Positions 3,067-52,614 of a stretch of DNA of 64,000 bases are shown piece by piece. How positions within the stretch are numbered: position 1 is the first letter of the stretch; every line of letters starts with the position of its first letter. The stretch covers positions 939 to 64,938 of the forward strand of contig CAYTDO010000003.1 of the NCBI GenBank assembly GCA_964436645.1, given 5' to 3'. The DNA comes from an uncultured Methanosarcinales archaeon. GTDB lineage: Archaea; Nanobdellota; Nanobdellia; Woesearchaeales; GW2011-AR4. The position numbers were made by a program, and so were the translations under genes. Below the pieces are notes generated by a model that saw only the letters and a list, made by a program, of their open reading frames with translations, was not told where the DNA came from and did no database searches.

Positions 3067-4287
3067 ATGGAGTTTTTAGAAGAAATGAGCGAAAAAAGGC
3101 TGATTATTGCGGGGATAGATCCAGGGACAACTACGGGGTATGCTATCCTTGATCTCCAAGGAAACATTGTTTCTTTAAAATCTTCGAAAAATCTAGGATT
3201 GAATAGTTTGCTTGAGGAAGTGTTCAAGGAAGGCAAGGTCATTTGCGTTGGAACTGACAGGGCAAAGGTTCCTAATCTTATAGAACTTTTTTCTGCAAAA
3301 ACTGGAGCAAAAATACTTTTCCCGAAAGAGGACTTAAGAGTGGAAGAAAAAAGGGAGATTGTAAGGAAATTCAGTGCAAAGAACGGCCATGAAAGCGATG
3401 CGCTTGCTGCTGCTTTATTTGCTTTTGGCAGGATACGCAGCATCTTGGACAGGATAGAGAACTATGCTAGAGAAAACAATAAAATTGCAATAAAGGCAAA
3501 GATAGCTGACCTTGTTATTACGAAAGAGATTAGCATTAGGGAGGCTGCAGATATAATAGAGAATCCCGGCAAAGAAGAAAGCCAGATAATAAATAAGGTA
3601 ATTGAAAAGGATCAGCTAAGGCAAAAAGATTTCTTGAGGCTTTACCGCATAATAAAAATGCAGGAAAATGAGCTTGCTCTCTTGAAAAGGCAAAACCACA
3701 ATCTAAAGAACTACTCAAGATCTTTGGAAAGGAAGCACATCGGCGTTCAACAAAAAGAGGAATATGAGATTGATAAGAAGATACAAAAAAATCTTTCATT
3801 CAAGAACAAGAGCATCAATTTTCTGGAAGGAAGAGTATTTGAAAAAGACAAAGAGATAGGCATGCTGAAGAAGGCAGTGGCGGAATTTAACAGCCTGCTT
3901 GCCAATATACCTCAATCTACAATATTGAAAAAACTCGACAATCTTGGGAGCGCTGAATTCAGCAAAAAATTCCGTGAATTGAATATAAGCCAAGGCGATA
4001 TTTTGCTTGTCAAGAATCCTAATATAACAAGCACAGGTGTCATCCAGTTTCTCAAGGATAAAGTTGATATAATAGTTACCAAAGATGCCCCAAGCAAAAA
4101 GATAAAGGAAGATTTCAATTTTACATTTCTTGAGGCTGAAGCTCTTAACATCAAAGATCATGGAAAATTTGCATCTGCCCCTAAAATGGAGATAGCTAAA
4201 GCCCTGGAAAGCAAGACTCTCTTGAAATCAGTTATAGAAAGCTATAAGCAGAAAAAGAAAGAGGAGATTACTTCATTAAATCCCTGA
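3067..4287 (+). CDS. DUF460-family protein (predicted RNase-H-fold / Holliday-junction-resolvase-like nuclease) with a coiled-coil C-terminal half
   Basis: The N-terminus (RLIIAGIDPGTTTGYAILD...GKVICVGTDRAKVP...HESDALAAALFAFGRI) matches the archaeal DUF460 signature. The start is chosen at MEFLEEM to avoid overlap with ribK. Confidence 0.55.
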   Translation: MEFLEEMSEKRLIIAGIDPGTTTGYAILDLQGNIVSLKSSKNLGLNSLLEEVFKEGKVICVGTDRAKVPNLIELFSAKTGAKILFPKEDLRVEEKREIVRKFSAKNGHESDALAAALFAFGRIRSILDRIENYARENNKIAIKAKIADLVITKEISIREAADIIENPGKEESQIINKVIEKDQLRQKDFLRLYRIIKMQENELALLKRQNHNLKNYSRSLERKHIGVQQKEEYEIDKKIQKNLSFKNKSINFLEGRVFEKDKEIGMLKKAVAEFNSLLANIPQSTILKKLDNLGSAEFSKKFRELNISQGDILLVKNPNITSTGVIQFLKDKVDIIVTKDAPSKKIKEDFNFTFLEAEALNIKDHGKFASAPKMEIAKALESKTLLKSVIESYKQKKKEEITSLNP

Positions 4288-4702: not shown

Positions 4703-4745
4703 TCTTCAGTTGAATATTATGCCCTTATTAAAGTTTGTCAAAAAC

Positions 4746-4970
4746 TAGCTTCGTGTAAAATGCAGGTTAGCAGCCTTGAGGTCGAATCTCTTTTATTATT
4801 CCAGCCAACTGACAAGGGGAGGTGCCACCTACGGGGAAAGTTAGTCTTTATGCAAAACACGAGAAAATTTCTTTGAAATTTTCTGTGTCCCGGAAATTGC
4901 AAAGCAATTTCCAAGGACATTAAAGATTCTAAGCCACTAACCCAAACGAAGTGAGTTTGTACACAACACT
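4746..4970 (+). mobile_element. decayed copy of a ~210-bp structured MITE-like element (paralog of the element at 52301-52509)
   Basis: Its first 25 nt (aaaatgcaggttagcagccttgagg) are identical to copy B. The 3' end is homologous (taaccc...gag) and internal differences are mostly transitions. Terminal inverted repeats are degenerate: agcttcgtgtaaaat at the left and tttgtacacaacact at the right. An approximate direct repeat tcaaaa(a)c flanks the element. Confidence 0.5.
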
Positions 4971-5014
4971 TCAAAAACAAAACCTTTTTATTCTGTTTGG
5001 AACTTTAAAAAAGG

Positions 5015-12670: not shown

Positions 12671-12730
12671 TTTCACAAAAACTCCGAAAGCATGCCTGCC
12701 TAGATGGCTTCATCGTTTGGGCTATTATTG

Positions 12731-12853
12731 GAATTTTACGCTCGCTCAATAGCTCGCATCACGCTCGAAAATCGTAGATTTTCGGTGTCCTGGAAATCTT
12801 TGATTTCCATGATTTTTGCCATTAAATGGGCGGAGGCACATTTTTTCCGCGCT
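12731..12853. repeat. ~125-bp hairpin-rich intergenic repeat, copy 1 of 3
   Basis: Shares gctcgcatcac...cgaaaatcgtagattttcg...ggaaatctttgatttcc...gccattaaatgggcggaggc...ttccgcgct with copies at 21204-21306 and 49867-49989. Three internal stem-loops. Confidence 0.65.
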
Positions 12854-21091: not shown

Positions 21092-21203
21092 ATGGGGCCA
21101 TGGTTTGAGAGTATATAAAAAGATTTAGGTTTTAGATTGGTTTAGTATTTTTTAATTTTGTAAATGTTTCTTTTTTATTGAAAAATATGCTTTGCAAAAT
21201 ATA

Positions 21204-21306
21204 GGCTCGCATCACGCTCGAAAATCGTAGATTTTCGGTGTCCTGGAAATCTTTGATTTCCATGATTTTTGCCATTAAATGGGCGGAGGCAGCATTTTAC
21301 CGCGCT
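21204..21306. repeat. ~125-bp hairpin-rich intergenic repeat, copy 2 of 3
   Basis: Near-identical to 12752-12853 and 49888-49989. Lies in the divergent promoter region between cca and the antiporter gene. Confidence 0.65.
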
Positions 21307-34888: not shown

Positions 34889-34898
34889 TAAAAAAGGT

Positions 34899-35010
34899 GG
34901 ACAGCTTCCCTAGTTTCCCATGCATTAACACAGTACAGCTAGGAACGGAGGCTTGTTTAACTTCGGAGTTCGGAATGGGATCCGGTGGAACCATGCCCCT
35001 ATGGCCGTCC
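34899..35010 (-). rRNA. 5S ribosomal RNA
   Basis: The minus-strand sequence GGACGGCCAUAGGGGCAUGGUUCCACCGGAUCCCAUUCCGAACUCCGAAGUUAAAC...GGGAAGCUGUCC shows 5S hallmarks (CCGAAC, AGUUAA loop region, helix I pairing GGACGGC/GCUGUCC). Confidence 0.85.
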
Positions 35011-35033
35011 AGCAAATAAGGAGTAATTCTTGC

Positions 35034-49759: not shown

Positions 49760-49866
49760 TGGATTATTTTTACTTTAGTTTTTTAAAAGCTTGATTTTTA
49801 ATTATTCTCTTTATGGGTTTTAATGAGTTTATTAGTGGAAATTTAATATTGAGCCATATTATCTTC

Positions 49867-49989
49867 GAATTTTACGCTTGCACAGTGGCTCGCATCACAC
49901 GCGAAAATCGTAGATTTTCGGTGGCCTGGAAATCTTTGATTTCCATGATTTTTGCCATTAAATGGGCGGAGGCGCATTTTTTCCGCGCT
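49867..49989. repeat. ~125-bp hairpin-rich intergenic repeat, copy 3 of 3
   Basis: Same element as 12731-12853. Shares the 5' extension gaattttacgct with copy 1. The listed ORFs 49813-50022 (+) and 49843-50034 (-) are translations of this repeat. Confidence 0.65.
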
Positions 49990-50789: not shown

Positions 50790-50808
50790 GTGGTTTTTGG
50801 TTCGTTTC

Positions 50809-51087
50809 TTAACAGTTTGCACTGGAAATGACTTCATATTGCACCGGACATTCGCGCGTAAGGCTTATAAATAAAAAATCCTGCCCAATCTTTTGCAGAT
50901 ATAAATCTGAGGGCAATAATCCATCATGACCAACCAATGGAATAACCTGGAAAGCCAAGGACAGGAAAGCAAACAGATAGATGAAGCCAATAAGCCTCAG
51001 AAAAACAAATCGTGTGTGCCAATAGCCAGAGGTTAGCTTGGACCGCCCCCACATTGTTTTAATGGTTTTCTCAATCAAATAAAACAC
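50809..51087 (-). pseudogene. N-terminal fragment of an HTTM-domain (vitamin-K carboxylase / LMF1-like) membrane protein, truncated after ~90 aa
   Basis: GYWHTRFVFLRLIGFIYLFAFLSLAFQVIPLVGHDGLLP matches the start of the HTTM domain. The frame ends at 50809 against the radB stop. Confidence 0.3.
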
Positions 51088-51238
51088 CTTTTTTGGAAAT
51101 GAATGTTAAGCTATTTAAGTTTTGCACTGACCCCCTAGCTTAAAAACTTTTTTCAAAAGATATTTAATGAAAGAAAGAAGAAAAGAAATCCCAACAAGGA
51201 ACTAAAATTTACATAATTTAACCGGCGCAACCGAACTT

Positions 51239-52120
51239 TTATTTCTTAAACTCGTACATAGGCTCTGAATCAAAATTCCAGAGCTCTTTCCAGCTGGATT
51301 CTATTGATAAAAAATCTATTTCTTTGCATTTGTGAATTATCGCGCTCTTAATTTGCTCAGATATAATCAGCTTCCCGATATTTTTTATTTTAGTATTTCT
51401 GCCTGAAGCAAGCACATAGTAAGTGCCATTGTATATCACTCCAAATCCAGCTGCCTCAACATTGCTGCCAATACTAACGCTTACAAAATCCGCCATTTCT
51501 TTGATTAACGCAATATTAGCAGCTTTTTTCATACTGCTGGCAAATTGCTTATCCCTAAAATTTGACTCTTTGCCAAACATAGCTTTATTCATGGCTATAA
51601 GCCTGTCAAAAACCTGCAATTTATTTTTTTCAATTGAATAATTTAATTCTTTCAGCTTCTTAAGGTCATAGTTCAGGTTTTTCCTGTGTTTTTTGTTAAA
51701 AAATTTCAAATAATTATCAAAGCTATTACCATATTTTTGCAGATTAAGAAAATATCTTTTATCTCCAAGCTCAAAATCATAGTATTTTGCTTCCTCCGAG
51801 GATATATAATAAATCTGAGTATCTTTAGGGCAGTTCTCAAAAAAAAGCTCAGCATTTTTTTTATCTTCAATCAAAAGCTTGTTCTGCTCAGGAAAATCAT
51901 CGCCAAAATAGGTAAAACTTCCATCGGACTTAGAGGAAACTAAAGGTAAAACCCCTATGGGCTTTCCATTCTCAGCCCCTAAAATAAAATTAAGCTTAAA
52001 ATCCTTAGTATGGAAGCATGATCTGAACTCCCATAAATCCCAAAGAGTCCGATTCTCACTGTATTTTTCCCAAATAGCTTTGCACTTGCTCTCTTCGGTA
52101 ATAACTTTAAACTTGGCCAT
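51239..52120 (-). CDS. FemAB/CelD-like GNAT-fold acyltransferase (hypothetical)
   Basis: 293 aa with a layout similar to BioF2/FemAB-family N-acyltransferases. Weak assignment. Confidence 0.4.
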   Translation of the reverse strand: MAKFKVITEESKCKAIWEKYSENRTLWDLWEFRSCFHTKDFKLNFILGAENGKPIGVLPLVSSKSDGSFTYFGDDFPEQNKLLIEDKKNAELFFENCPKDTQIYYISSEEAKYYDFELGDKRYFLNLQKYGNSFDNYLKFFNKKHRKNLNYDLKKLKELNYSIEKNKLQVFDRLIAMNKAMFGKESNFRDKQFASSMKKAANIALIKEMADFVSVSIGSNVEAAGFGVIYNGTYYVLASGRNTKIKNIGKLIISEQIKSAIIHKCKEIDFLSIESSWKELWNFDSEPMYEFKK

Positions 52121-52300
52121 CTAATCTCTATCGTTTGCTCCTGACAATAGAAAAAGTGTATGTTTATAAACTCTCTCAGGCCTGAATTTCTTCTTGAAAT
52201 TGAGCAAAATTGCCTGAACCTCCAAAATCAGTGCAATCATAGCCTACTCCTGTAAGCCGATAATTCAGTTTTTAGGTATTTTAAATATTTTGCATAGATG

Positions 52301-52509
52301 GGCTTCCATGAAAATGCAGGTTAGCAGCCTTGAGGCCGAGCCCCTTGCTAAGCACATCTAAAGAGTCCGAGGGGCCGCTCCGTGAGATGCGACGAGCGGC
52401 TTTTTAGCTCGCCGCCCGCAATTCACCGGACCTGACCGATGCTTTCAGCCCAGATGCAATGGGCTCGAAGCTGCTAACCCGTAGCGTAGCGGAGATTTTC
52501 ATGGAAGCC
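52301..52509 (+). mobile_element. intact ~209-bp GC-rich structured MITE-like element: perfect 15-bp terminal inverted repeats and perfect 9-bp target-site duplication
   Basis: TIR ggcttccatgaaaat (52301-52315) and attttcatggaagcc (52495-52509). TSD gcatagatg at 52292-52300 and again at 52510-52518. The interior is about 58% GC with a nested terminal helix GGTTAGCAGC/GCTGCTAACC and further helices (CCGAGCCC/GGGCTCG, CATCT/AGATG, CCGCTC/GAGCGG). A second copy lies at about 4746-4970. Confidence 0.7.
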
Positions 52510-52614
52510 GCATAGATGAGAACAAAGCCTAGTTACGGAGATTTTAAACAAACTTTTCCACAACCTTTTTAAACCGCTATTCGTAACTTTATACTCTAAC
52601 TAAAGGTAAGTTTC

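Follow-up and report, generated by a model that had tools for sequence, protein, structure and literature searches.

MITEs are well known in archaea, and bacterial genomes carry intergenic fold-back repeats such as Correia/NEMIS, ERIC and RUP, which are short, palindromic and mobile, lie near promoters, can be co-transcribed and affect neighboring genes. The elements described here differ from these bacterial repeats in the length of the duplication and in their ends, and are known from sequence alone. A recent census found a Woesearchaeal genome to be among the most MITE-dense of archaea, with 105 per Mb (PMC11602168). Our elements come from a DPANN archaeon (Woesearchaeota/Nanoarchaeota, 37% GC) and its relatives, and resemble prokaryotic MITEs, including those of DPANN/Woesearchaeal genomes (PMC11602168), in being non-coding and 209-292 bp long, in having inverted repeats, a target-site duplication and a fold-back structure, and in being intergenic, lineage-restricted and represented by several families per genome. 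They depart from them in the strong GC enrichment of the interior relative to the host, in the mosaic nature of the cores, which share D1-like and AT-rich two-hairpin modules, and in that all insertions examined abut a core promoter. The element at the center of this analysis, element B, is hence of an ordinary kind, found in a lineage whose richness in MITEs was known before, and the interest of the case is modest, lying in the use of one and the same promoter spacer by three elements of different types and in the GC-rich modular cores.

The window, i.e. the entire 64-kb stretch of DNA analysed, has a GC content of 37.4% rather than the ~33% given for the genome by the first-pass annotation. 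The acyl-CoA carboxylase beta subunit encoded in it is most similar, at up to 93% identity, to proteins from metagenome bins of Nanoarchaeota/Woesearchaeota, the closest being P0001 at 93% identity. Among the other genes of the window are radB, an NMD3-like gene, a TFIIS-type zinc ribbon, an archaeal signal peptidase and a lone 5S rRNA. The last is a stand-alone gene on the minus strand (34896-35012, 80.8 bits), with 16S and 23S absent from the window. Element B is a 209-bp, non-coding element of the MITE type (52301-52509; longest ORF 32 aa), situated between two putative back-to-back promoters. Its left terminal inverted repeat, GGCTTCCATGAAAAT (52301-52315, plus strand), is the perfect reverse complement of the right one, ATTTTCATGGAAGCC (52495-52509, minus strand), with 15/15 positions matched, and the right arm recurs in a homologue from a metagenomic contig, L011. 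Identical copies of the 9-bp duplication GCATAGATG occupy 52292-52300 on the left and 52510-52518 on the right, and the element in its context reads TTTT-GCATAGATG-GGCTTCCATGAAAAT...[179 bp]...ATTTTCATGGAAGCC-GCATAGATG-AGAAC. The 179-bp interior (52316-52494) is a non-coding fold-back, which had been rightly described as GC-rich; the figure of ~58% attached to it needs amending, as the interior measures 60.9% and the whole element 57.9%. Within the interior GGTTAGCAGC (52319-52328) is matched by GCTGCTAACC (52470-52479), and CGAGCCC (52337-52343) by GGGCTCG (52461-52467). Each arm thus comprises three blocks, namely the end, GGTTAGCAGC and CGAGCCC, with spacers that differ between the two arms, which is the layout of a fold-back transposon. 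The family core sequence of B is GCAGGTTAGCAGCCTTGAGG.

One might attribute these repeats to chance, or regard them as the footprint of site-specific integration or of a local duplication. A/T-rich genomes do hold many short repeats, a consideration that is not specific to this locus. We scanned for 12-bp inverted arms with at most one mismatch, 60-1500 bp apart and adjoined by an exact 8-10-bp direct repeat: element B was the sole match in the window, and none of 40 first-order Markov surrogates (0/40) yielded such a structure, confirming the perfect 15-bp inverted repeats and 9-bp duplication reported previously. Further, independent elements of the same architecture with 8-9-bp duplications are found in relatives, and 209 bp is too small for an integrase-borne element, with no integrase nearby. 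We accordingly give a fortuitous or integrase-derived origin almost no credence.

Instead, B is very probably a MITE, i.e. a non-coding, non-autonomous DNA transposon, and one member of a small superfamily that occurs in DPANN archaea of the Woesearchaeota type. This reading draws on the ends, the duplications, the empty and filled orthologous sites, the different contexts of the copies and the lack of coding capacity, the contrast of empty and filled sites being seen for a second member in the window (copy A) and for an element of the related contig L015. The first-pass view of B as a non-autonomous element of the cut-and-paste type, with a true target-site duplication, is thereby supported, as is the mobility of the family, whose members sit in other contexts. 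In mechanistic terms, a transposase encoded outside the window would bind GGCTTCCATGAAAAT at both ends, mobilize the element by excision or copying, and integrate it at a staggered cut of 9 bp; repair of this cut would generate the GCATAGATG duplication. The interiors of the superfamily are GC-enriched fold-backs assembled from exchangeable hairpin modules. Since the inverted repeats and the duplication are both still perfect, the insertion of B is probably recent. Simple transposon biology does not account for the GC enrichment of the interiors.

A Pfam scan of the 40 window ORFs of at least 180 aa recovered housekeeping or unknown proteins and no transposase, which, together with the identity of the neighboring genes, bears out the earlier statement that the window lacks a transposase gene; nor did the window or the gene tables of the fetched loci reveal an autonomous partner with matching ends. 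The enzyme acting in trans may be a DDE transposase, possibly of the IS5/IS903 type. IS903B has the ends GGCTTTGTTGAATAAATC and generates 9-bp duplications (PMC10569121). Like the IS903 group (IS5 family, DDE transposase), the elements have ends that begin with GGC and duplications of 8-9 bp (9 bp in B). The ends begin GGCTTTGTGTAAAAA in L009, GGCCTTGTAGAAAAT in L011, GGCTTCCATGAAAAT in B and GGCTTCATCCAAAAAAT in L015; in L009, the first eight bases of the end, GGCTTTGTGTAAAAAGC, agree with those of IS903B, and the other ends are variants. However, this similarity, noted post hoc, extends over only ~8-13 of 17 bases, IS903 itself is bacterial, and no IS903-like transposase gene occurs in the window or the fetched loci. 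Hence, the similarity in the ends may serve as a lead and not as proof.

B lies 105 nt 5' of the carboxylase ATG and on the same strand, a placement that could also suggest a conserved cis-regulatory leader or promoter (e.g. riboswitch-like) of the acyl-CoA carboxylase operon. Comparison with relatives speaks against this. Eight related contigs (L001-L008; carboxylase 81-85% identical in amino acids) have the orthologous operon with no B ahead of it. In 3/8 of them, only 78 bp separate the end of radB from the carboxylase gene; the remaining contigs have other genes in the interval, such as HEPN/nucleotidyltransferase pairs or an LMF1-like gene. Moreover, the only stretch conserved upstream of the carboxylase in these relatives is the ~68 nt before the ATG (52547-52613, with CTTTTTAAACC), which is 85-90% conserved in L001-L008 and lies 3' of B. 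Thus the operon has its own promoter/leader (52547-52614, plus strand) independent of B, and the proposal that B supplies a promoter or leader function is not supported. Nor is the parallel proposal for copy A, given that the signal-peptidase promoter CAAAAACAAAACCTTTTTAT is conserved at the empty sites. Homologues of B also adjoin unrelated genes. A conserved single-copy locus with identical flanks, which would have spoken against transposition, was looked for, and B proved absent from the related carboxylase loci. A cis-regulatory leader is already refuted by this absence, and the chance of its being correct is, in our estimation, vanishingly small. The radB-carboxylase interval (50790-52614 in the window, compared with L001-L007) is a variable island, which here contains a 92-aa ORF and a GNAT-type gene. 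For this reason no precise empty site for B was found among the relatives, the comparison providing only its absence upstream of the orthologous operon.

Filled and empty states can be directly compared for copy A (4746-4970, plus strand), which has the termini of the family, in the form of the degenerate inverted ends TAGCTTCGTGTAAAAT / GTTTGTACACAACACT, around an unrelated interior. It is flanked on the left by GTCAAAAAC (4737-4745), which agrees at 8/9 positions, with the last eight identical, with TTCAAAAAC on the right (4970-4978); the flanking repeat is hence TCAAAAAC (8/8), or (G/T)TCAAAAAC (8/9) if taken as a 9-mer, and the right copy is followed by the conserved signal-peptidase promoter AAAACCTTTTTAT. 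The orthologous spacer between the divergent NMD3-like and signal peptidase genes is empty in about ten related contigs (L014, L019-L022 and L031-L036), with lengths ranging from 42 to 185 bp: 42 bp in L031-L034, 85 bp in L035/L036, 87 bp in L019-L022 and 185 bp in L014. In these empty spacers the motif duplicated around A is present in a single copy, NNNAAAAAC, after which comes the conserved peptidase-gene promoter, AAAAC(C/A)TTTTTAT. Copy A is therefore a true insertion, in agreement with its prior listing as a related insertion.

The relationship of A to B is less simple than that listing had it. A 25-nt block at the 5' end is identical in the two (4757-4781 = 52311-52335), and similarity is strong at the 5' ends (z = 11) and also present at the 3' ends (z = 3.5), so the identical block and the homologous 3' end stand. 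The 130-nt interiors show no detectable similarity (z = -0.06), and with this the description of A as a decayed copy of B falls. Within the alignable ends the changes are mostly transitions from G/C to A/T, as had been noted, and some preserve pairing: the counterpart in A of the B helix CGAGCCC/GGGCTCG is GAATCT/AGATTC, where both partners of three pairs have changed and complementarity is retained. Erosion of an old B copy by AT drift was considered as the origin of A and rejected, as only the termini are homologous and the interior holds a D1-like module. This is a double hairpin (4851-4915, plus strand), consisting of GAGAAAATTTC..GAAATTTTCT, then GTGTCCC, then GGAAATTGC..GCAATTTCC, which resembles the D1 repeat; blastn aligns it with the D1-like copy in L009 at 78% over 55 nt (E = 7e-4), and nhmmer with the D1 profile gives a weak match (E = 0.097). 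A is thus a second, older member with a different core, belonging to a different subfamily or being a chimera.

We scanned metagenomes with a 20-mer core common to A and B and recovered two true homologues, in contigs L011 and L009, with a third copy being found in L025. These homologues of what we term family 1 are 83-90% identical and occur in unrelated contexts, bringing the copy count to two in the 64-kb window (A and B) and three more in metagenome contigs. L011 contains a full copy (368-565), 83% identical to B over 202 nt, which keeps the 3' arm of B; its 5' arm (GGCCTTGTAGAAAAT) is degenerate, and the repeat flanking the copy has decayed. In L009 the first 57 nt of the family follow straight after the stop codon of pepA, and the contig ends inside the element; the stop codon TAG (58-60) overlaps the first G of the element end, placing the insertion exactly at the 3' end of the gene. 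In L025 the 3' part of the family (GGGCTCGAAGCTGCTAA) is found in reverse complement in the NMD3/signal-peptidase spacer, at the end of the contig. In all, six contigs (L006, L009, L016, L020, L021 and L025) end inside these elements or modules, as would be expected of multi-copy repeats. The 20-mer was absent from 185,579 species-representative genomes and from viral contigs, with no match in phage or plasmid records, from which it follows that the family is narrowly distributed. Other candidates were discarded: the hits to the 20-mer in L010, L012 and L013 are due to chance, and L023 and L024 are chance coding matches from four scans of viral contigs. A protein-based scan with the NMD3-like gene yielded no relative, and a 65-aa read-through ORF of L011 has no relatives among 5.8 billion proteins.

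Beyond family 1, L015 and L018 contain a different, 282-bp element at exactly the nucleotide position of A (L015 892-1173 = L018 871-1152). Its junctions read GCTAAAAAC|GTCTTCATCCAAAAAAT...ATTTTTTGGATGAAGCC|(T)GCTAAAAAC, i.e. a 9-bp duplication around ends matched at 16/17 positions. A second, partial copy lies at L015 55-120. L019 has a 292-bp relative of this element at another site (687-978), with ends GGCTCAGTAGAAATCC matched 16/16 and the duplication GTTTTTAT(G) of 8-9 bp; the two share the blocks GGGTTGCCA, GCTCGAAC..GTTCGGCACCA, CCCCGTAAGGGA and AATTGATGGCAACCTTCA. Together the L015/L018 and L019 elements constitute a sister family with GGCTTC...AAAAT-type ends and 8-9-bp duplications. 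The duplicated target differs from copy to copy, being GCATAGATG in B, (G/T)TCAAAAAC in A, GCTAAAAAC in L015 and GTTTTTAT(G) in L019. We define the superfamily by ends of the GGCTT/GGCTC...AAAAT type, 8-9-bp duplications and GC-enriched cores. The GC content of the cores is 47-61% against 37-39% in their contigs, and that of the interior in every family exceeds the host value by 10 to 23 points.

This enrichment is one of the features that could lead one to view B as a mobile gene for a structured non-coding RNA, with the inverted ends as its closing helix and the GC-rich core being transcribed by read-through or from the neighboring TATA box to yield a small RNA, terminator or insulator. GC enrichment is common to all related elements, the interior of B reaching 61% in a genome of 37%, and B, A, L009 and L011 share an almost unchanged 5' block of 25-29 nt. 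The folds of B and L011 also far exceed those of shuffled sequences (z = -5.0 and -4.3 respectively). Nevertheless, in 5/5 elements (B, L011, A, L015 and L019) the fold of the minus strand equals or surpasses that of the plus strand, as is expected of a DNA palindrome. When the best fold of B is read in L011, 56 pairs are unchanged, 7 are preserved through a one-sided change, none is compensated and 13 are broken; the best fold of L011 read in B gives one compensated and 13 broken pairs (71-78 pairs per fold), and RNAalifold on B and L011 finds one compensated pair, counts that come from two full sequences only and hence have low power. Neither are substitutions depleted at paired positions, with 24 of the 39 differences between B and L011 falling in paired columns, which make up 74% of columns. 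The helix shared by A and B, with its three pairs changed on both sides, is also expected if a single transposase binds the two arms.

Comparisons with known RNAs point the same way. In searches of Rfam 15 at gathering and E-value thresholds, the best match scores 17 bits against a cutoff of 60, which gives no support to a known RNA family, a possibility raised for checking in the first-pass annotation; the related elements retrieve nothing from Rfam at E <= 0.1, and ARAGORN detects no tRNA. Comparison by eye with RNase P, SRP and K-turn motifs gave helix topologies that did not fit. The elements have no internal A/T-rich promoter, and the T5 run in the middle of B is absent from L011. The idea of an RNA gene driven by the flanking TATA box is likewise weakened, the box appearing to serve the leftward gene and the orientation of the copies to the adjacent promoter being variable (B, L011 and L019 versus A and L015, with L025 reversed). 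Thus the proposed RNA-level constraint receives no support from covariation between B and L011, from strand asymmetry in folding or from Rfam, and the evidence points to a DNA palindrome rather than an RNA. An RNA role is distinctly unlikely, and we keep it as a minor alternative because the test on two copies is weak and the GC enrichment unexplained.

Returning to B as a transposon, its position and those of the other members relative to genes follow a common pattern. All insertions examined lie in a short spacer just upstream of the TATA box of a neighboring gene, and the junctions of B, L019, A, L015 and L011, when read toward the nearest gene, show the 9-bp target followed by an A-run and a TATA-like box. 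On the basis of sequence motifs we assign these boxes to promoters as follows. For B the junction is CATCTATGC|AAAATATTTAAAATA, directed toward a 39-aa ORF and then a GNAT-type gene (51239..52120); the A/T-rich TATA-like box beside the target, TTTTAAATATTTT (52279-52291, minus strand), is the putative promoter of this leftward pair and appears to face away from the element. The L019 junction, CATAAAAAC|AAAAATATTTTAAATA, would precede the TFIIS-type gene, those of A and L015, NNNAAAAAC|AAAAC(C/A)TTTTTAT, the signal peptidase gene, and that of L011, TTTTTATTA|GAAACATTTAAATATA, a leftward ORF. With respect to this promoter the elements can point either way. The 39-aa ORF (52121-52240, minus strand; MIALILEVQAILLNFKKKFRPERVYKHTLFLLSGANDRD) is unannotated and has a GGAG motif 8 nt upstream; immediately after its stop codon comes the ATG of the GNAT-type gene.

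The pattern of sites might reflect a target preference (often for NNNAAAAAC), survival where a compact genome tolerates insertion, or both. Survivorship may explain much of it, as spacers of 42-87 bp leave little other room. Some sequence preference is suggested by the fact that two unrelated members, A and the L015 element, sit at the same nucleotide position in different species, and by the recurrence of an AAAAAC motif. A stronger version, in which the family targets the upstream margin of core promoters in archaea and the GC-rich hairpin cores are possibly kept for an action there, is in our view tentative and rather unlikely. If true, promoter-directed insertion would explain the presence of three members in the same ~20-bp divergent-promoter spacer of different species, and the cores might act at the DNA or RNA level, e.g. 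as insulators or terminators between back-to-back promoters. The case puts on record a MITE that seems to have inserted recently into a very small DPANN genome, along with a clear contrast of filled and empty sites among related populations. Because elements of this kind fragment assemblies and can, by their GC content, pass for RNA genes, recognizing them is of value for annotation; they may also be used in tracking strain-level variation. The promoter-adjacent insertions and GC-rich cores provide modest leads on how transposons survive where intergenic spacers measure only 40-90 bp.

Several further repeats were encountered in these genomes. D1 is a third repeat family of ~105-126 nt, the copies of which are 93-96% identical; it occurs in the window at 12728-12853, 21181-21306 and 49864-49989, and also in L009 (1689-1743) and L025 (2153-2204). 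It consists of the two hairpins CGAAAATCGTAGATTTTCG and GGAAATCTTTGATTTCC joined by GTGTCC. The copies occupy intergenic spacers, of which two separate divergent genes, and show neither inverted ends nor a duplication; D1 has no match in Rfam. A D1-like module is also found inside the L015 element. Just upstream of the D1 copy at 12728, the segment GCCTAGATGGCTTCATCG (12694-12718) resembles the left junction of B, GCATAGATGGGCTTCCATG. We rejected it as a B-like end as it has no partner arm, and it may be a coincidence or a remnant end. L004 contains an unrelated 143-bp MITE-like element (3404-3546) with 12-bp perfect ends, GTATCTGCTAAC, and an exact flanking repeat of 8-10 bp. Finally, an AT-rich two-hairpin module of ~107 nt, with the paired segments AAAGGGCA..TGCCCTTT and CGGACAA..TTGTCCG, is free-standing upstream of the carboxylase in the Hainich population (L004 5727-5832 = L005 983-1088, and L006 1-66) and recurs inside the L019 element (L019 825-931) with 85% identity.
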